NCBI GenBank assembly: GCA_945889365.1
Contig: CAMDBQ010000001.1
Location: 1 to 29,606, forward strand
DNA from: Legionella genomosp. 1
Lineage (GTDB): Bacteria; Pseudomonadota; Gammaproteobacteria; Legionellales; Legionellaceae
Direction: 5' to 3'
DNA length: 29,606 bases
Of the stretch, positions 17,852 through 29,606 are shown piece after piece. Numbering within the stretch: the stretch's first letter is position 1; the number at the start of each line of letters is the position of its first letter. A program made the translations under genes and the position numbers. The notes under the pieces are model-generated. The model saw only the letters and a list, made by a program, of their open reading frames with translations. It was not told the origin of the DNA and ran no database searches.

Positions 17852-17928
17852 GGCTGATATGGTAATGTAAATGGGTTTGACGATAGAGTAGTTGGTTGAA
17901 AAGGTCAAGTTTTTTACAAATTAACCGT

Positions 17929-17959: not shown

Positions 17960-18153
17960 GAAGTATTTCGGGGATGGTTCAAAAGCAGTGAACACTCATC
18001 CAATTTTTAATAGTAATTTTTGAGAGCAGTCATCGATCCGCCTAAATTTTGTGACAGAAGACGCTGCGGGGGGTTAAGAAACAACACCCCTTTTACTCAA
18101 AAAGGCAAAAGGCAAGCCCTGGTGCGCCACGAAAGCTTGTCTGGAAGTCAGAT

Positions 18154-18399
18154 GTGTCGGGCGTTCCTTGTACAAGCGACAAAGCATTGCAGCGAAGCGT
18201 GTCAGAAGTTTTATCGGCCATATATGAGCAAGACTTTCTGGCATGTTCGTTTGGGGGTAGGCCAAAACTCAGTGCGCATCATGCACTTTCAACCCTGAAT
18301 GAAATCATCTCGGGCAAGAAGGTAGGATGGGTATATGAGGCCGACCTGAAGAATTTCTTTGGTAGTTTAGATCACGGATGGTTACTACAATGCAAGTAA
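18154..18399 (+). pseudogene. Group II intron reverse transcriptase fragment (RT2-RT3 region)
   Basis: GVPCTSDKALQRSVSEVLSAIYEQDFLACSFGGRP..SAHHAL...WVYEADLKNFFGSLDHGWL; no YADD region and no true N-terminus. Confidence 0.88.
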
Positions 18400-18721: not shown

Positions 18722-19849
18722 TCACATGCAGTGTTCAACGGAAACATCCTCCTCATATTTTCTGCAAATCAATATCTTCTCCCCTGATTCAGTCATTTGA
18801 AGAATACTGAAATTTATCTGTTTAAGGAACTTTATATTACTGTCACTTAAAATAAATCCTAACGATACTAGCGGAAATTTAATAGGAGTTATATATAAAT
18901 CAGTCTTGGGCAACGTTTTCAGATACTCCATTGCTAAAGGGTTAAACGCGTACACCCCAACCACATCTCCTTTTTCCAATAAAGCGATATTTTTTTGCAG
19001 GGTCGGTAGATTGGCAATTGATCGAAGTCCCATCATAGCTGCTGTATCTCGAGTGTTTGACCAACCATAAACGGCAATCGGTCTATTATTCACGTCAGAT
19101 AATTGCTTGATGGTTTTTTCTGCATTAGCAATGCTAGACACCAACGAAGCAGTCAATCCAGCAAAAATAGAAAAAAAGCAAATAGTACAAATCACAGACC
19201 AAATAATCGTAATCACGCGCATGAATCTTGTTTCAGGAAAATATGGCGCGGATTGAATCTTCCAACCCACAAGACTTTTCCAGAATAAATTCTCAATCCC
19301 TCTTTTATAATCCAACTCACAGAGATCCTTCTGGCGCATGCGTTCAACATACCAAAACAAGTGAATATATAACACATAAAAAATCAAGAAAATCAGAAAA
19401 GCAAGAGCGGAGGAGGGCCCTCTGAATATCACATTAAAACGTGACCATGCAGCCAATATGTTCAATTTATGTTCTTTGGCAATTAAAACATAATGATCTT
19501 GATAATAGGGCACGGTGAAATACACGTTCTTTGCCCGCGAGGCAAGAATCCCCACTGGCCCAATCACAGCATCCAGCTCCCCACTGGAGACTTTTGTTAT
19601 AGCAGCATCAACATTTGATCCGAGATCAACATATGTTGTCGAAAAATTATTCTCTTTTGAAATACTATTCCATATATCAACCGCAATGCCAGAAGGATGC
19701 CCGGATATATATTGTGAAAATGGCGGTATGTCAACAATACCAACTTTGAAAGGAATGCTTGCCAATACGGCAGGTGTTGGAAAACTTGTTGCTGAATGAA
19801 TCCATAAAATAAAAAACATTAGCGGAGCCAATAAAAATTTAAATTTCAT
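18722..19849 (-). CDS. Substrate-binding protein fused to a 2-TM pore module (GluR0-like ligand-gated channel)
   Basis: Signal peptide; S1 (VGIVDIPPF...GIAVDIW...LDAVIGPV...FTVPYY); TM1 ending FWYVER; re-entrant segment GIENLFWKSLV; TM2 ending FAGLTASL; S2 (IKQLSDVNNRPIAV). Confidence 0.8.
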   Translation of the reverse strand: MKFKFLLAPLMFFILWIHSATSFPTPAVLASIPFKVGIVDIPPFSQYISGHPSGIAVDIWNSISKENNFSTTYVDLGSNVDAAITKVSSGELDAVIGPVGILASRAKNVYFTVPYYQDHYVLIAKEHKLNILAAWSRFNVIFRGPSSALAFLIFLIFYVLYIHLFWYVERMRQKDLCELDYKRGIENLFWKSLVGWKIQSAPYFPETRFMRVITIIWSVICTICFFSIFAGLTASLVSSIANAEKTIKQLSDVNNRPIAVYGWSNTRDTAAMMGLRSIANLPTLQKNIALLEKGDVVGVYAFNPLAMEYLKTLPKTDLYITPIKFPLVSLGFILSDSNIKFLKQINFSILQMTESGEKILICRKYEEDVSVEHCM

Positions 19850-22411: not shown

Positions 22412-23929
22412 ATGGATTTATTAACGCATCTGAATATTCAATCAAAAAACCCCGGAGCCTATAGCGGGCATACTTGGAAAGGTGAATTAAACGGCCCTAA
22501 TCTTCAATCCATAAACCCTGCTACTAACGAGCAAATTGCTGACGTTGCAACCTGTAGCATCCAGGATTATCACGAAGTGATGGAACGCGCTCAACAGGCT
22601 TTTCTTGCCTGGCGTATTGTACCTGCTCCTCAGCGCGGGGACATTATTCGGCAAATTGGCCAAGCCTTACGAGAATACAAAGATCATCTAGGCAGTCTGG
22701 TTTCGCTGGAAATGGGGAAGTCTAAACAAGAGGGCGATGGCGAAGTGCAGGAAATGATTGATATTGCTGATTTTGCAGTGGGTCAAGCACGTATGTTATA
22801 TGGGAATACCATGCACTCTGAACGTCCTGAGCATCGCATGTATGAGCAATGGCATCCTTATGGCGTTGTTGGTGTGATTTCGGCATTTAATTTTCCTGTC
22901 GCGGTTTGGGCGTGGAATGCATTTATCGCCGCTATATGCGGTAATGTAACTATTTGGAAGCCTTCTTCAAAAGTTCCTTTATGTGCGATTGCCGTGCAAA
23001 ACATATGCAATCAAGTGCTGAAAAAAAATAATTGCCCGGCCATTTTTTCATTGATTATCCCTTCATCGCATGACATCGGAACCACCATGGTCAATGATTC
23101 ACGTATGCCGTTGATTTCTTTCACCGGATCGACTGCTGTAGGCAAGGATATTGCAGTTAAGGTGGCAGGTCGTTTTGGTCGTAGTATTCTTGAATTAGGC
23201 GGGAATAATGCGATTATAGTTGATGAATCAGCGGATCTGGCTTTGGCAATCCCGGCGATTGTATTTGGAGCAGTGGGAACAGCCGGGCAGCGTTGTACAT
23301 CCACAAGGCGCTTGTTTGTACACGCTTCAATTTATCAAGATGTGCTTCAACACTTGCAACGCGCTTATGCACAAATTACGATTGGTCATCCATTGGATAA
23401 TAAAAATCTTATGGGACCCTTGATTGATAAGCAAGCGGTTGAGCTGTTTAAAAAAGCCTTGATTCGGATCAATGATGCCGGTGGTGAGGTTCTTTTTGGC
23501 GGTGAAGTGATTAAACGCGCAGGCAATTTTGTACAGCCCACGTTGGTGTCTGGTTTAGAGAATAACAATCCTATTGTGCAGGAAGAAACATTTGCGCCGA
23601 TTCTTTATTTGATGCCCTACTCCAATCTGGAAGACGCCATTGCTTTGCAAAATGCGGTACCTCAGGGACTCTCATCTGCATTATTTACTCAGCATTTAAA
23701 GCATGCAGAATACTATTTAAGCGTACAAGGCAGTGATTGCGGCATTGCGAATATTAATATTGGTACGTCAGGCGCTGAAATTGGTGGCGCTTTTGGTGGT
23801 GAAAAAGAAACCGGTGGCGGGCGTGAATCGGGATCGGATGCGTGGAAGGCATATATGCGCCGTCAGACCAATACGATTAATTGGGGAAGTACTTTGCCGT
23901 TGGCACAGGGGATACGGTTTCCGATTTAA
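22412..23929 (+). CDS. Aldehyde dehydrogenase family 7 (piperideine-6-carboxylate / aminoadipate-semialdehyde dehydrogenase)
   Basis: [79 protein letters not shown]; start 1 bp after the upstream stop. Confidence 0.92.
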
Positions 23930-23949
23930 TGTATAAGGAGTTAAATACA

Positions 23950-26316
23950 ATGCAAGAACCATTCATCATTAAAAAAATAGCAGTACTCGGCGCGGGTGTT
24001 ATGGGCGCACAAATTGCCGCTCATTGTGTTAATGCAGGCATTGAAACATTACTATTTGATCTCGCACCCAAAGAAGGCAAGCATAGTGCCATCGTAGATA
24101 ATGCGATTACCAATCTGACAAAAATAAAGCCAACGCCGTTGGCTACTCCGCAAACAGCTGGATTATTAAAATCTTGCAACTACACAGATAATTTACCTGA
24201 ACTAGGCGACTGTGATTTGATTGTCGAGGCGATCGCTGAACGCCTGGATTGGAAAGAAGACTTATATCGTCGTGTCGCACCCCATTTAAATGATCATGCC
24301 ATTTTAGTAACAAACACCTCCGGATTAAGCATCAATGCTCTGGCTTCTGTGTTACCTGACAGCCTGCGCCACCGTTTTTGCGGCGTGCATTTTTTCAATC
24401 CTCCACGTTATATGCATTTGGCCGAATTGACACCAACCTCGACTACATCACCTGAGTTACTAAATAATCTTGAAAGCTGGTTAACCAGTCGCTTAGGCAA
24501 AGGGGTAGTACGTGCCAAAGATACACCCGATTTTATTGCCAATCGCATCGGCGTTTTCTCGCTGTTGGCAACGTTACATCATGCGAAAGCATTCGAACTG
24601 GGTCTGGATGAAGTGGATGCGTTGACTGGGGCGCTACTGGGAAGGCCGAAATCAGCCACGTTCCGTACCATGGATGTCGTAGGACTCGATACGATGCAAC
24701 ATGTAGTACACACCATGCAAGCGCATTTGACGGACGATCCTTGGCATGCTGCATTCAAGCTGCCTGATTGGTTAGTGGGGATGATTCAAACAGGCCATCT
24801 CGGTCAAAAAAGCGGGCAAGGCATTTATCGAAAACAAGGCAAGGCAATTGAAGTGTATGATGTTGCTTTAGCTGATTATCGTATAGCGCAAGGTGAGGTC
24901 TGTTCAGAAGTCAAAGCCATTATGAAGTTGAGCCATGCTCGTAAACGTATGCAGCAGTTAATAGCATGCGATCACCCTCAAGCCCGATTTTTGGCCGCCT
25001 GTTTTCGAGATTTATTTCATTATTGTGCATTTCATCTGGAAGGCATTGCCGAAAACGTACGCGATGTGGATTTAGCCATTCGATGGGGATTTGGTTGGGC
25101 TCAAGGACCATTTGAAACATGGCAAGCGGCAGGCGTTGCTGATATGCGTAAATTTGTGGAGCGCTCAATGGCTGAAGGGGAATCCATGAGTTCGGCACAA
25201 TTACCAGCCTGGTGTGAAACGATTGCTGATTTTTATACTAAAAACGGTGCGTTTTCCCCCGCGACCGCTAAATTTATAGGTCGTAGTCAATTGCCGGTTT
25301 ATAAACGTCAGTTTTTCCCTGACCCCGTGATGTTAGAAGAGCCGCTGTCATCAACCACTTTATTTGAAAACGAAGGGGTGCGTTTATGGCATCTAAAAGA
25401 CGATGTTGCGGTGATTAATTTCAAGAGCAAAGCGAGTGCCATAGGTCAATCGGTTATTGATGGATTCAATCAAGCTTTGGATATCGCAGAACGCCAATGT
25501 CAGGGTGTGATTATTTACCAGCACGATGAAAATAATTTTAGTGCGGGCGCTAACTTGCGTGAAGTGGCTACCCTGATCCAGGCTGGTCAATTGAATGTTG
25601 TGGATGACATGATTGGCAATTTTCAAAAAATGGTCATGCGCATGAAGTACAGCGCTATTCCAACGATAGCTGCATTAAGAGGGCGCGCACTGGGCGGTGG
25701 TTGTGAATTGATGATGCATTGCAGCAGCGTGATGGCAGCGTTTGAATCTTATCCTGGATTAGTTGAGATAGGCGTAGGACTTATTCCAGCCGGGGGTGGT
25801 TGTAAAGAAATGGCACTTCGTGCTGCCGCTAAGGCACAAGGCACCGATTTGATGGCGCACATCCGTCCTTATTTCGAACAAATCGCAACAGCAACCGTTG
25901 CCAGCAGCGCGCCTGATGCGTTGCAACGGGGGTATTTGCAAGCAAAAGACAACTGGGTCATGCATAAAAACGAAGTGCTTTATGCTGCTCTTGGCAAAGT
26001 AAAATCCATGCAAGCCGCGAATTATATGGCTCCATTATCAACCCGATTTGCTGTTGCAGGCCGTGAAGGCCATGCGTTGTTACGGGTGGGTTTGGTGAAT
26101 TGGCTTGAAGGTGGGCTTATTTCCCAGTACGACTATTTCCTGGCAAATCAATTGGCACAGGTATTATGTGGTGGCGAGGTGAATCAAGGCGAGCTGGTCG
26201 ATGAAGCCTGGATGCTAAAGCTGGAAAAAAACGCGTTTATGACGCTAGCGGCGGATCCGTTGACGCACGCGAGGATTGGGTATTTGTTGGAAACGGGCAA
26301 GCCGTTACGAAATTAA
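23950..26316 (+). CDS. 3-hydroxyacyl-CoA dehydrogenase / enoyl-CoA hydratase (FadN-type, HAD domain first)
   Basis: AVLGAGVMG, EAIAE, TNTSGL, HFFNPPRY, C-terminal crotonase ALGGGCE...GLVEIGVGLIPAGGG; AGGAG RBS before ATG 23950. Confidence 0.92.
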   Translation: MQEPFIIKKIAVLGAGVMGAQIAAHCVNAGIETLLFDLAPKEGKHSAIVDNAITNLTKIKPTPLATPQTAGLLKSCNYTDNLPELGDCDLIVEAIAERLDWKEDLYRRVAPHLNDHAILVTNTSGLSINALASVLPDSLRHRFCGVHFFNPPRYMHLAELTPTSTTSPELLNNLESWLTSRLGKGVVRAKDTPDFIANRIGVFSLLATLHHAKAFELGLDEVDALTGALLGRPKSATFRTMDVVGLDTMQHVVHTMQAHLTDDPWHAAFKLPDWLVGMIQTGHLGQKSGQGIYRKQGKAIEVYDVALADYRIAQGEVCSEVKAIMKLSHARKRMQQLIACDHPQARFLAACFRDLFHYCAFHLEGIAENVRDVDLAIRWGFGWAQGPFETWQAAGVADMRKFVERSMAEGESMSSAQLPAWCETIADFYTKNGAFSPATAKFIGRSQLPVYKRQFFPDPVMLEEPLSSTTLFENEGVRLWHLKDDVAVINFKSKASAIGQSVIDGFNQALDIAERQCQGVIIYQHDENNFSAGANLREVATLIQAGQLNVVDDMIGNFQKMVMRMKYSAIPTIAALRGRALGGGCELMMHCSSVMAAFESYPGLVEIGVGLIPAGGGCKEMALRAAAKAQGTDLMAHIRPYFEQIATATVASSAPDALQRGYLQAKDNWVMHKNEVLYAALGKVKSMQAANYMAPLSTRFAVAGREGHALLRVGLVNWLEGGLISQYDYFLANQLAQVLCGGEVNQGELVDEAWMLKLEKNAFMTLAADPLTHARIGYLLETGKPLRN

Positions 26317-26333
26317 ATACATTGTAAATTAAA

Positions 26334-26362
26334 TGTAGGGGCTCGCGGCGCGCGCGCCTACA
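26334..26362. repeat. GTAG-type REP-like palindrome inside the fad operon
   Basis: TGTAGGGGCTCGCGGCGCGCGCGCCTACA: GC-rich imperfect palindrome with GTAG/CTAC ends. Confidence 0.6.
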
Positions 26363-26393
26363 GAATAATATCCTTGAACATGGAGCATCAAAC

Positions 26394-27578
26394 ATGACAA
26401 ACATATACATAGTAGACGTCCTACGCACACCCGTAGGCAAAGCCCCGCGCGGCGTATTCAAACATACGTTACCTGACGATCTGCTGGCACACACAATCAA
26501 AGCCCTGACAGCCCGTCAAGCCACCGTAGATTGGGAAGCCATCGGTGATGTCGTCATCGGCTGCGCCATGCCAGAAGCAGAGCAGGGAATGAATGTCGCA
26601 CGCATCGCGTCACTATTAGCCGATCTACCGCAATCCGTACCCGCCATGACGATCAATCGCTTTTGTTCTTCTGGCGTGCAAAGCATTGCCACAGCGGCAG
26701 CAAGCATCAGGCAAGGTGACATGTCACTGGCATTGGCCGGTGGGGTGGAAAGCATGTCGATGGTGCCGTTAGGTGGCAATAAATACACTGTAAACCCGGC
26801 TATTTTTAACAACGAACACATTGCAATCGCATATGGCATGGGCATCACTGCTGAAAAAGTAGCCCAGCGCTGGCAGGTTACTCGTGAACAACAAGACGAA
26901 TTCGCCGCAGAAAGCCACCGACGCGCCGTGGCTGCACAACAACGTGGTGATTTTCAAGCTGAAATCACACCTGTCACCATTATGGATCGACATGCGAATT
27001 TAGCTACATCAGAAGTCACCAGCAAACCGCGAATAATCATGAATGACGAAGGCCCTCGAGCCGAGACATCGTATGAAGCCATCGCACGGTTAAAGCCAGT
27101 ATTTGCAGCGAAAGGCACCGTAACAGCAGGCAATAGTTCACAAACCAGCGATGGGGCAGGGATTGCATTACTAGCCAGTGAAGCCGCATTAAAGGAATAT
27201 AACTTACAACCCATGGGTCGATTGCTCAGTTTCGCTGTTGCAGGCGCTCCCCCTGAAATCATGGGAATAGGCCCCATTCATGCTATTCCTCTGGCACTGA
27301 AACGCGCAGGCATAACCCTTGATCAACTGGATTGGATTGAGCTCAACGAAGCATTTGCCGCACAAGCGCTAGCGGTGATTAAAGAGCTTGATTTACCACG
27401 AGACAAAGTGAATCCATTAGGGGGTGCCATAGCATTAGGCCATCCGTTAGGCGCTACAGGAACAGTAAGAACCGCTACGTTATTGCATGGCTTGCGTCGA
27501 ACCAACGGTCGTTATGGCATGGTGACCATGTGTATTGGAACGGGAATGGGCGCAGCAGCTATTTTTGAAGCGCTATAG
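26394..27578 (+). CDS. fadA: Acetyl-CoA C-acyltransferase (3-ketoacyl-CoA thiolase)
   Basis: INRFCSSG catalytic Cys, AGNSSQTSDGA, ELNEAFA, GGAIALGHPLGATG, MCIGTGMG. Confidence 0.95.
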   Translation: MTNIYIVDVLRTPVGKAPRGVFKHTLPDDLLAHTIKALTARQATVDWEAIGDVVIGCAMPEAEQGMNVARIASLLADLPQSVPAMTINRFCSSGVQSIATAAASIRQGDMSLALAGGVESMSMVPLGGNKYTVNPAIFNNEHIAIAYGMGITAEKVAQRWQVTREQQDEFAAESHRRAVAAQQRGDFQAEITPVTIMDRHANLATSEVTSKPRIIMNDEGPRAETSYEAIARLKPVFAAKGTVTAGNSSQTSDGAGIALLASEAALKEYNLQPMGRLLSFAVAGAPPEIMGIGPIHAIPLALKRAGITLDQLDWIELNEAFAAQALAVIKELDLPRDKVNPLGGAIALGHPLGATGTVRTATLLHGLRRTNGRYGMVTMCIGTGMGAAAIFEAL

Positions 27579-27582
27579 AAAA

Positions 27583-27633
27583 AATCAACTGGTATGTATC
27601 CCGGTAAACCGGTAACTCCGTATAAAGCACCAT
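27583..27633 (-). pseudogene. 5' stub of an Avd-like / four-helix-bundle gene (DGR accessory protein)
   Basis: AGGA 7 nt upstream of ATG 27633; reads MVLYTELPVYRDTYQLI, then runs antisense into the fadA 3' end and stops at 27559. Matches the LY.ELPVY/F.D.Y.L N-terminus of Avd-like proteins as I recall them. Confidence 0.7.
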
Positions 27634-27657
27634 CTGAACATCCTAAAAAAAACTGCG

Positions 27658-27672
27658 GCCCGCTGCGCGGGC
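27658..27672 (-). other. GCA-triloop hairpin downstream of the putative variable region (DGR cis-element candidate; may also act as a terminator)
   Basis: Minus strand GCCCGC-GCA-GCGGGC, 44 nt after the target stop codon, followed after 5 nt by T8. Confidence 0.6.
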
Positions 27673-27716: not shown

Positions 27717-27872
27717 CTAAAGGGTTAAAGCCCGGGAACAACGGACACCAAGCGTGAGGAACTTACCGAGGCTGCTCTGACCGCTGCCGCCGCCTGACGC
27801 GAAGACCTGGAGCCACGCGGTGCCAGTCGGATCACCTGAGTTCTCGGTAGAGCTCCAGTAGCCGCCAGCCAA
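27717..27872 (-). other. Putative DGR variable region (VR)
   Basis: 23 of the last 50 codons end in C and only 3 end in A. NNC/NNT codons sit where the canonical template has AAC/AAT (GGC ACC, CTC, GTC, AGC AGC CTC GGT, TTC CTC). Confidence 0.75.
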
Positions 27873-29147
27873 GCATGAAGTGCCTGTGCAAGAGGTTAAC
27901 AACAGCGAAGGCAGGTTGGTCACCATGTTAGGCGTACCCGATACGCAACCAGAACCATTGGCTGCCGGTCCCATCTCACATATGGCTGGTAAATACCAGT
28001 CTGTAAAACCCCCGATGCTGGCCTTGCAGAGGCCTGATGCGTATTGTGTTAATGGGGTTGGTGCGGCTCCTCCCGATGCTCTATTCGCGTTGTAATACGT
28101 GACGATGTTGGTGGTGTCACATGAGCCATCAGTTCTACCATTGCAGGCAGATTGGCCTGTTATCTGCCCTGAACTGGGGATAGGACTTGCGCTCGTGGAT
28201 GTTTCAGAAATCCCGAAAATGGCTATATAACTGACGGTGGTACCCGAACCGTCAGAACTCCATATAATCCCATTCGGGTATGCGGCTGCCTGGTCTGTCA
28301 CTGCGGCCACTTTTCCGCCGATACTGCCCGTTATGGGCGTCGTATCATCAATCGAGTATATAAATCCTGATTGATACACGCTGGCCAATGCCACTATGTT
28401 TAGCGTGGGCGTTAGGGCGTTGGTATTTGCCCCCTGAACACTGAGGGTAATCGGCGTTGGGTTGGTGTTATAGGCTGCGGCACTCGCGGTAGCACCAGGT
28501 GTGATGGTTAATACGCACGTGCCTGCAGGTGCTATGTTTCCACAGCTGGCTGGCGCTATGGTCGTGCCCGCTGGCAATGCGGGGGATGGGCTGTACGTCA
28601 CGCTGCTTGCAGTTGATGTACCTGTGTTGGTGAAGGTGATTGTTCTTGGTACGCCGCTTGTTTTAAGTGCCAGTGTAGTGACGCTTGCGCTAATCGTTGT
28701 AGACAGGCTGACGGGAGGGGTCACCATAATACTTAAGCTATTGCTTTGACTGGGCTGATAACACTGTAACGGACTCGGATTGCCATCGGGCCCTTGCTGA
28801 CAAACTTTCGGGCCGGCATTAATATCTGCGTTTAATGCACTGCCTGTAATCAACAATGTTAGAGTGCAAGACGGATTACCGCCTGACAAGGTAAACGGAT
28901 TAGGGCAGTTCCCTGCCGTAGTGGTTTGTGTGATGCCGGTTATGGGCACCATCATCAGCGTATGGGGTGCTGGCGACTGATTGGTGACTCGATATTGCAC
29001 GGTGGCTGTCGAATTGGAGGGTACGGATAGCGTGGTGGGTGTTAGAGGTGTAAATGTCCATACCGGACTGCCTGCTTGAGAGGTTGTAGCCATGGTCAGG
29101 GCGGCTGCACCCAGTAACAAAGGCATCATGCGTTTATTGTTCATCAT
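27717..29147 (-). CDS. Secreted protein with Ig-like stalk and C-terminal DUF1566/Lcl (C-type lectin fold) domain; probable DGR target
   Basis: Sec-type signal peptide ending SQA; Thr/Pro/Cys-rich beta domains; GFIYSIDD..GGKVAA, DWYLPAICEM, YWSSTE...AW...F...GVRCSRAL C-terminal motif. Confidence 0.85.
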   Translation of the reverse strand: MMNNKRMMPLLLGAAALTMATTSQAGSPVWTFTPLTPTTLSVPSNSTATVQYRVTNQSPAPHTLMMVPITGITQTTTAGNCPNPFTLSGGNPSCTLTLLITGSALNADINAGPKVCQQGPDGNPSPLQCYQPSQSNSLSIMVTPPVSLSTTISASVTTLALKTSGVPRTITFTNTGTSTASSVTYSPSPALPAGTTIAPASCGNIAPAGTCVLTITPGATASAAAYNTNPTPITLSVQGANTNALTPTLNIVALASVYQSGFIYSIDDTTPITGSIGGKVAAVTDQAAAYPNGIIWSSDGSGTTVSYIAIFGISETSTSASPIPSSGQITGQSACNGRTDGSCDTTNIVTYYNANRASGGAAPTPLTQYASGLCKASIGGFTDWYLPAICEMGPAANGSGCVSGTPNMVTNLPSLLLTSCTGTSCLAGGYWSSTENSGDPTGTAWLQVFASGGGSGQSSLGKFLTLGVRCSRALTL

Positions 29148-29157
29148 TAGAGAGTCC

Positions 29158-29606
29158 TTACGAGAGATAACTTAAGCTAAATTGAAGTCCATTGGTGTAC
29201 AGGTGACTCAACGACAACCCTTGCCCCATGGTTTGACCTGATGCGCGCGCCAGCTGGCTTTGACCCCAGTCCGCAAACTCATACCCCATACCGGCCTGCC
29301 AATGCTGGTTTATCGCGCGCTGCACGCCAATACCTACGGTATACGTAAAGGCCGTTGTGGTGTTGGATTGGAAATTAGGCGTGGGTGTTGCTTGAAAAAG
29401 CGTTGGTGTTGACGTGAAATGACGGGCTTGGTTAAAACCCACGCCTAAACTCCCGCTGACATAAGGTTTAAATGCATGACCTAAGTCTTTAATGAGTTTT
29501 CCTTTCACTGCAATGTGGGTGTGCTGGACGTTGTAGGCGTAATTGAAGTTATTAAACTGCGGCAATGCATCATCCCAGATACTGCCTGACAGATTGGCAT
29601 TGCTGG
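29158..29606 (-). CDS. Outer-membrane beta-barrel protein, C-terminal part (gene starts beyond the right edge)
   Basis: Frame is open to the window end (…SNANLSGSIWDDALPQFNNF…). Alternating beta-strands PYVSGSLGVGFN, FTYTVGIGVQ, WQAGMGYEFADWG, GLQFSLSY. Stop is 10 bp before the next ATG, with the AAGGA RBS overlapping the stop. Confidence 0.8.
   Translation of the reverse strand, partial: SNANLSGSIWDDALPQFNNFNYAYNVQHTHIAVKGKLIKDLGHAFKPYVSGSLGVGFNQARHFTSTPTLFQATPTPNFQSNTTTAFTYTVGIGVQRAINQHWQAGMGYEFADWGQSQLARASGQTMGQGLSLSHLYTNGLQFSLSYLS

Follow-up and report, generated by a model that had tools for sequence, protein, structure and literature searches.

Diversity-generating retroelements (DGRs) are known mutagenic reverse-transcription systems. 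The DGR of Legionella pneumophila and its target LdtA (Arambula et al, 2013, as described in Wu et al, 2018; PMC5758913) belong to the CLec2 type, category 'd' (DUF1566/DUF823/Fib_succ_major), with LdtA being a lipoprotein and the cassette following architecture B, in which the elements are ordered target-avd-TR-RT, where TR is the template repeat and RT the reverse transcriptase (PMC5758913). Targets with DUF1566 domains are reported to be frequent in freshwater MAGs (PMC11661182). The Treponema denticola DGR has seven remote targets (Wu et al, 2018; PMC5758913). In Bordetella phage BPP-1, efficient retrohoming depends on a GC-rich inverted repeat located 3' of the variable repeat (VR) (Guo et al, 2011; PMC3240598), with BPP-1-type phage elements having a stem of 7-10 bp and a 4-nt GRNA loop at a distance of 4-34 bp from the VR (PMC3240598). 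An inverted repeat 3' of the VR is needed for efficient homing in both the Bordetella and the Legionella DGRs (PMC5758913; PMC3240598).

We analysed a stretch of 29,606 nucleotides from Legionella genomosp. 1 (assembly GCA_945889365.1, contig CAMDBQ010000001.1, positions 1 to 29,606), referred to here as the window, and a follow-up of its first-pass annotation led us to the tail of a gene on the minus strand (Table 1). The annotation had proposed from base composition that this segment has already been through retrohoming, a proposal now supported by VR-type polymorphism, a match to TRs from sister cassettes, an avd stub, a hairpin, and a lectin-like fold. We consider it very likely that the tail is a genuine VR of a Legionella-type DGR that was later decapitated and is most probably frozen. 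That DGR mutagenic retrohoming made the VR in the first place is close to certain.

Table 1. Features of the target locus and of related elements, in window coordinates unless a contig is named.
Feature	Position	Strand	Basis or remark
Convergent thiolase (fadA-like) gene	26394..27578	plus	ORF; Pfam Thiolase_N/C on the L015 ortholog
avd stub, with the ATG at 27633 opening 17 codons (MVLYTELPVYRDTYQLI)	27583..27633	minus	Avd search
GC-rich inverted repeat, GCCCGC-GCA-GCGGGC	27658..27672	minus	44 nt past the target stop codon
VR-specific end, ALTL and stop codon, past the TR homology	27717..27730	minus	VR/TR alignment
DGR target gene, 476 aa: Sec-type signal peptide, Ig-like beta-sandwich domains, C-terminal Lcl_C/DUF1566 C-type-lectin-like domain	27717..29147	minus	ORF call
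VR	27731-27872	minus	Within the last 52 codons of the 476-aa target gene
IMH-like GC-rich invariant 3' end of the VR (CTTGGTGTCCGTTGTTCCCGGG)	27731..27752	minus	Last stretch common with related TRs
Codons 429-465, the variable part of the VR, with 17 hypervariable codons of the NNC/NNT type apart from ACG, and invariant scaffold between (YWSSTE, SG, P, AW, Q, FASGGGS, Q, K)	27753..27863	minus	Homolog comparison; Logan contig breaks
Outer-membrane beta-barrel-like gene, 5' end off the contig	29158..29606	minus	ORF; directly upstream of the target
Fragment of an RT gene on C7	G000:C7:14677-14943 = L013 1279-1710	minus	37% identical to DGR RT over 90 residues; N-terminal half missing
Avd-like / 23S_rRNA_IVP ORF on C13	G000:C13:9287-9511 = L018 about 1500-1750	plus	66 bits; one in-frame TAA
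DUF772 transposase genes	L049 10376-11590; L050 1821-3281; L328 4231-5703; L333 4227-5630		

The peptide quoted in the annotation corresponds exactly to the last 49 residues of the target. The excess of C-ending codons described for it is borne out, with 23 of 49 codons in the tail ending in C compared with 131 of 427 in the rest of the gene (Fisher p = 0.024), and this bias does not run along the whole gene: among the other non-overlapping 49-codon windows the maximum is 21 and none reaches 23. The tail is also poor in adenine, with a fraction of 0.14 compared with 0.27 in the body of the gene (p = 7e-4) and a count of 21 that is the lowest of any 49-codon stretch in the gene, the minimum elsewhere being 28. 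This depletion is greatest at codon position 3 (0.06, compared with 0.26 in the body), where the NNY design of the template accounts for it no less than mutagenesis does. Taken alone, the composition signal is moderate, and it is the comparison of homologs that makes the case decisive.

A protein search returned 797 homologs of the target, mostly DUF1566 proteins of Legionella and Legionellaceae MAGs, and residue entropy was calculated from an alignment of the window protein with 12 homologs that are each 86-92% identical to it overall. In this alignment, the last 50 residues form an invariant scaffold (YWSSTE-SG-P-AW-Q-FASGGGS-Q-K-LGVRCSRALTL) that is broken by hypervariable sites. Entropy at the 17 sites predicted from their NNY codons is 2.44 bits, compared with 0.23 in the body of the protein and 0.10 in the VR scaffold, and of the 25 positions with the highest entropy in the entire protein, 15 are among these sites. 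The suspect residues are not conserved among the homologs, with 2-10 different residues found per site in the 13 aligned sequences. The repertoire at these sites is also narrow in kind: 219 of the 221 residues fall within the 15 amino acids that can be reached from AAY by adenine change, and the alignment contains no K, Q, M, W, or stop at any of the 17 sites.

Alignment of the C-termini at the DNA level gives the same picture. Between the window and L015, a contig of P0005, the differences at codon positions 1, 2, and 3 number 13/11/1 in the VR (codons 428-466) and 34/17/63 in the body of the gene, so that differences in the VR fall at positions 1-2 of NNY codons, as the first-pass annotation had anticipated. 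The corresponding counts against L085 are 16/8/5 in the VR and 16/10/45 in the body. Further, the columns that vary among six VRs of this clade match the adenine positions in three related TRs, with Fisher p values between 1e-6 and 1e-8. Substitutions among the window VR and its homologs are therefore of the kind found in VRs, being confined to adenine-templated positions with the third position and the scaffold preserved. The annotation had also stated that scaffold codons contain few or no changeable positions, which is only partly right: TAC, ACC, GAG, CAG, AAG, and AGC do hold adenines, and 17-20 of the TR adenines fall at invariant VR columns. These adenine-bearing codons are presumably held invariant among homologs by selection and not by a lack of mutable positions.

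Real TRs adjoin DGR reverse transcriptases in one genome of the same genus and one of the same family. The cassette of the same-genus genome (G001:C51) is complete, with an outer-membrane beta-barrel-like gene followed by a DUF1566 target of 723 aa, an avd gene of 121 aa, the TR, an RT of 390 aa with the motifs GLPIGNLTSQ and YVDD, and then a DUF772 transposase. In this cassette, the cis VR differs from its own TR at 20 adenines and at zero other bases up to CCCGGG (IMH). Cis VR/TR pairs in three further cassettes (G014:C7, G015:C16, and G031:C99) have 15-24 adenine mismatches, along with 1-2 non-adenine mismatches in G014 and G015 and 7 in G031, five of which lie in the upstream flank. From the window sequence, the first-pass annotation had back-predicted the translated template YWSSTENS.NP.NNAWNQNF…NQNNNNKNN..VR. 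Every residue that it specified agrees with the TR of G019, which translates to GNYWSSTENSGNPQNNAWNQYFASGGVSNQNNNDKNNQLGVRCSRGFK, or with that of G001, which translates to GNYWSSTEYSGNPTNNAWNENFASGSGSNQNNNNKNNHFSVRCARGFK, and a sister TR such as NYWSSTENSGNPQNNAWNQYFASGGVSNQNNNDKNNQLGVRCSR reads almost as predicted; the run of dots after F is shorter than the real scaffold at that place. The back-predicted template thus matches TRs in sister genomes, and the searches described below found no cognate TR of the window VR. That cognate template is predicted to consist of the VR scaffold shared by the window and L015, with AAC or AAT at the 17 variable codons and GGGGTTTTAA after CCCGGG.

Two observations on these cassettes extend beyond the VR. 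A DUF772 (IS5-like) transposase gene lies directly 3' of the RT in every RT-bearing cassette of the lineage that was seen (Table 1), and this transposase may mobilise the cassette or cause adjacent deletions. The TR word CAGAAYAAYAAYRAYAAGAAYAAY (Q-N-N-N-N/D-K-N-N) occurs in at least 120 metagenome contigs and at least 120 genome contigs. These are drawn from many phyla, with Pseudomonas, Bacteroidales, Actinomycetota, Methylococcaceae, and others among the sources, and some of the matches are plainly simple AAC-rich repeats and not TRs. If the remaining matches are TRs, this template segment is widely common to lectin-type DGRs.

The VR closes with a GC-rich stretch, CTTGGTGTCCGTTGTTCCCGGG, that is identical in five of the six clade VRs, the one in L335 having three differing positions. 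Compared with the 3' end of the G019 TR, it has one third-position difference, in the first codon (CTT vs CTG). Right after CCCGGG the two kinds of repeat part, with CTTTAACC in the VR and GTTTTAAA in the TR, and the tail is ...SRALTL* in targets and ...SRGFK* in TR reading frames. At the sequence level, the window VR therefore has both a putative GC-rich IMH at its 3' end and an inverted repeat downstream, and the split past the conserved stretch would be the usual IMH/IMH* divergence. The inverted repeat is followed, 5 nt past the stem, by a T8 run (27645-27652, coding strand). It folds with -10.6 kcal/mol (z = -2.2) and appears as a terminator-like site on both strands. The hairpin structure is kept in L015, L085, L334, L335, L336, and L086 despite sequence changes, and the intact G001 cassette has a comparable GC hairpin 3' of its VR. 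We consider the structure a candidate DGR target hairpin or cruciform, although it also fits an intrinsic terminator of the target gene and may be only a terminator.

Downstream of the hairpin lies the remnant of an avd gene. With the Avd of the G001 cassette as query, the stub is matched with E = 8.7e-6 and 69% identity over 26 residues, including LYTELPVYRDTYQLI at 15 of 15 positions. Past the stub, the reading frame is the antisense of the end of the thiolase gene, with a stop at 27559, and the deletion junction is within a few bases of the thiolase stop codon. The 17-codon stub shows that an avd gene was once present downstream of the target; of an avd between VR and TR, this stub is all that the window contains. 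On the other side of the target, the beta-barrel gene ends 10 nt before the target start codon. Whether intact or decapitated, all cassettes seen have this gene together with the target, and the same order of beta-barrel and target genes is found in G001:C51, L328, L333, and L336. Its orthologs in L016, L334, and L335 give matches to PF13505 (OMP_b-brl) that are weak or faint. The beta-barrel may serve specifically to display or anchor the target, which lacks a lipobox.

The N-terminus of the target, MMNNKRMMPLLLGAAALTMATTSQAGSP, read directly from sequence, contains no Cys and no twin arginine, and the protein therefore does not have the lipobox cysteine and TAT-type signal of an LdtA-like lipoprotein. 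A full-length AF2 model (pLDDT 90.6) consists of Ig-like beta sandwiches followed by an alpha/beta C-terminal domain. When this domain was modelled alone (pLDDT 77.8), it matched the C-terminal domain of Legionella Lcl (8q4e) with Z = 11.0 and an rmsd of 2.1 Å over 113 residues, and the Bacteroides fimbrial protein 4eps with Z = 10.8. Further matches include many C-type-lectin-like domains, among them those of the DGR targets TvpA (Z = 6.2) and Mtd (Z = 5.7). Foldseek with the full-length model is dominated by the N-terminal Ig-like domains and is uninformative on the VR domain. The Pfam Lcl_C profile scores 24.1 bits on the target, under the cut-off of 34.9, and PF07603 is precomputed on most homologs. 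Based on the model and the homologs, the VR is carried by a C-type-lectin-like domain of the kind found in CLec2/DUF1566 (Lcl_C) targets of the Legionella type.

The source MAG is 85% complete and is assembled in 207 contigs, none under 3 kb. DGR cassettes flanked by IS are easily lost from bins. With this incompleteness and the missing short contigs, the absence of an RT and TR from the assembly is weak evidence. A repeat search found no TR in the window, and in the source MAG blastn and a custom adenine-tolerant scan recovered only the VR itself. A narrower pattern, applied to 206 family genomes, matched only the two known TRs. With the CAGAAYAAYAAYRAYAAGAAYAAY pattern, which is too unspecific, in metagenome and genome contigs, none among the matches listed fits the window VR better than the G019 TR, which as the best template fit among those matches has 12-15 non-adenine mismatches to it. 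The TRs on contigs of the RT homologs P0126 and P0128 were likewise rejected, being not cognate to the VRs of the window, L015, L017, L085, L086, or L087.

No DGR-type RT, intact avd, DUF772 transposase, or target paralog was found in this 85%-complete MAG. In place of an RT with the motif [ILV]GxxxSQ, the assembly holds RTs and fragments of the group II intron type, which were rejected as DGR partners, and one truncated RT fragment. The latter, on C7, reads IGNATTS…LMDD, with TS where the motif needs SQ; it was rejected as the partner, being truncated, scoring 25 bits to the DGR RT, and having no TR nearby. The Avd-like ORF on C13, of the four-helix-bundle type, is broken, stands alone without a neighbouring RT, and was rejected as an accessory gene. 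The group II RTs of the MAG comprise one full-length gene (C6) and several fragments (C86, C52, C182, and C112). The window itself contains a pseudogene fragment of a group-II-intron-type RT at 18055-18396 on the plus strand, situated between ORFs that end at 17908 and start at 18722, with an open frame of 114 codons, an RVT_1 score of 24.5 bits, and stops inside the match.

Related loci show several other forms of decay. In L085, where the target protein is 92% identical, an 81-codon avd pseudogene with two stops is followed by a DDE transposase (IS). L336 has an intact avd, beyond which a 10-nt microhomology, AAAACACCAG, marks the jump to the 3' portion of the DUF772 transposase gene; the deletion starts just before the TR, and the TR, the RT, and the 5' part of the transposase gene are gone. 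In L335, a group II intron lies inside avd. The contig of P0008 has a target that is 86% identical and ends in a TR-type tail (…VRCSRGFK), with the DGR RT 58 nt downstream, and looks like the product of homologous recombination between VR and TR that would have eliminated avd and left the target joined to the end of the template. Short avd stubs are present in L086 and G005:C97. Stubs of 25-81 codons adjoin VR-like DNA in eight other genomes of the family, stubs also recur in several metagenome contigs, and over half of the independent stub breakpoints lie around avd codons 26-37, a cluster that may reflect a hot spot or selection. Orphan VRs in G001, G014, G015, and G031 were considered as trans targets of the resident DGR and rejected, with 15-37 non-A mismatches to the resident TRs. 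Such loci are kept in G012 (100% complete) and G011 (99%), in which no homolog of the cassette RT was found. Of 36 sampled Legionellaceae genomes, 14 contain VR-like DNA, often in several copies per genome. The cassette RT was found in 22 of 149 genomes across the family and, within the genus of the window, in one genome out of nine. Decapitated cassettes therefore appear to be common in freshwater Legionellaceae.

The window and L015 share the same junction between avd and thiolase and are 99.86% identical over the 3.7 kb from 23907 to 27606, with the thiolase gene 99.7% identical. From 27607 to the end of the contig at 29606, a block that covers the beta-barrel gene, the target, the VR, and the hairpin, they are ~8.5% divergent, and the boundary between the two levels of identity is at the avd stub. 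This pattern suggests that the module is a different allele in a nearly clonal background, probably exchanged through recombination that used the stub as its anchor. Between the two VR scaffolds there is one third-codon difference in 50 codons, where the rate in the body of the gene predicts ~7 (Poisson estimate, P about 0.005). Because the scaffolds are nearly identical, both VRs would have received their sequence from almost the same TR, at a time after the divergence of the two alleles. The sequences fit rewriting of this locus in trans as well as rewriting in intact donor cassettes ahead of import.

Since the assembled genome has no TR or DGR RT, the VR is most probably a frozen snapshot of its last retrohoming, and we consider it probable that the VR is not further diversified in this genome. 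Alternatively, the VR could still be active, with a complete avd-TR-RT on an unassembled or unbinned contig diversifying the orphan VR in trans via its IMH-like end and hairpin. The MAG would allow for such a contig, being 85% complete and composed of 207 contigs that are all at least 3 kb long. Chromosomal DGRs with remote targets have been described, with avd, TR, and RT working in trans (Wu et al, 2018; PMC5758913). At this locus both the IMH-like end and the hairpin are intact, and the window resembles L015 much more closely in the VR scaffold than in the flanking sequence. Population data can be read in the same direction: in the Logan contigs of lake runs X3 and X4, contigs break at 27756, the VR boundary, and X4 has 3-4 alternative contigs. 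These breaks and multiple VR versions could come from diversification within a population or from co-occurring strains. In contrast, Logan contigs for the lake-water source run X1 and for a second run, X2, consist in each case of a single contig that spans the stretch with 0 differences from the window and no alternative over the VR, although at a depth of only ~7x, and in contigs, which hide rare variants. Continued activity in trans is also at odds with an assembly that lacks TR, DGR RT, intact avd, and linked DUF772 transposase, with the four relatives that have both an orphan VR and a DGR but whose resident TR does not fit the orphan, and with the two essentially complete genomes that keep orphan loci without a homolog of the cassette RT. 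On balance we regard an active VR as unlikely, although it is the alternative to a frozen VR that we take most seriously.

A more speculative idea, which we hold to be doubtful, is that decapitated modules consisting of the beta-barrel gene, target, VR, hairpin, and avd stub are a maintained class of satellite targets. It is prompted by the divergent block between the window and L015 ending at the avd stub and by over half of the stubs ending at avd codons 26-37. If so, the stub and hairpin could be kept as cis signals needed by a DGR located elsewhere, whether in the same cell or in the community, to retrohome in trans, or as a homology anchor for swapping fresh VR alleles between strains.

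Hypervariable regions are prone to chimeric assembly, and the related runs do have fragmented contigs over the VR, but it is very improbable that the window VR is an assembly consensus or chimera of co-existing variants carried by no single cell, given the single, difference-free Logan contig with no overlapping alternatives in X1 and X2 and the intact reading frame and scaffold. Finally, hypervariability produced without a DGR, by diversifying selection and recombination on a surface protein with the C-ending codons being a local codon-usage quirk, could draw on the allele exchange that does occur here (a module ~8.5% divergent from L015 within 99.86% identical flanks), but is barely credible when VR differences are confined to codon positions 1-2 of NNY codons with synonymous change nearly absent, the variable columns coincide with adenines of real TRs, the residues are those accessible from AAY, an avd stub is found directly downstream, intact DGR cassettes occupy the sister loci, and cis VR/TR pairs do show adenine specificity.

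Based on the established DGR mechanism and the pattern described above, the origin of the frozen VR can be pictured as follows. An RT with the motif IGNLTSQ would have copied an AAC/AAT-rich TR into cDNA, misincorporating opposite template adenines, and this cDNA would then have been substituted for the 3' end of the target gene, as far as the GC-rich IMH-like stretch. In this process, about 17 codons would be randomised on the ligand-binding face of the C-type-lectin-like (Lcl_C/DUF1566) domain of a secreted protein, with AAY template codons being unable to mutate to stop codons. A later deletion would have taken most of avd together with the TR and RT, ending at the stop codon of the convergent thiolase gene. 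The VR would now evolve, and pass between strains, as an ordinary allele of a surface protein.

The analysis indicates that the target alone is enough to recognise a VR and to predict its template, through NNY enrichment, adenine depletion, and a fixed scaffold. Recognition of this kind works even when the TR and RT are gone, and such VRs would be missed by DGR finders that are anchored on the RT or TR. Surveys restricted to intact DGRs would consequently underestimate the number of surface lectins shaped by retrohoming, as illustrated by VR-like DNA in 14 of 36 genomes compared with the RT in 22 of 149.

As a type, the locus is a Legionella-type CLec2 target, a kind that is already known and ordinary for the field. 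Like Bordetella phage BPP-1, it has a GC-rich inverted repeat downstream of the VR, but the stem in the window is 6-8 bp with a 3-nt loop (GCA) and a T8 run after it, and the hairpin is 44 nt past the stop codon and about 70 nt past the end of TR homology. Like the remote targets of T. denticola, the VR gene has no adjacent TR or RT and keeps an IMH-like end. However, remote targets have only A-to-N differences from a TR in the same genome, and no such TR was found for the window VR. The avd stub further identifies the window locus as a truncated cassette and not a free-standing extra target. With the L. pneumophila DGR, the locus shares the family, the position of the VR at the C terminus of a DUF1566/Lcl_C C-type-lectin-like domain, the AAY-rich template design, the GC-rich IMH-like end, the downstream inverted repeat, and sister loci with the order target-avd-TR-RT and an RT with IGNLTSQ and YVDD. 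In contrast to that system, avd in the window is cut after 17 codons and the TR and RT are missing, a beta-barrel gene is always coupled upstream, and the neighbourhood is one of housekeeping genes and not an ICE. The target also departs from the lipoprotein LdtA in having a Sec/SPI-type signal (…TTSQA|GSP) with neither twin arginine nor lipobox cysteine.
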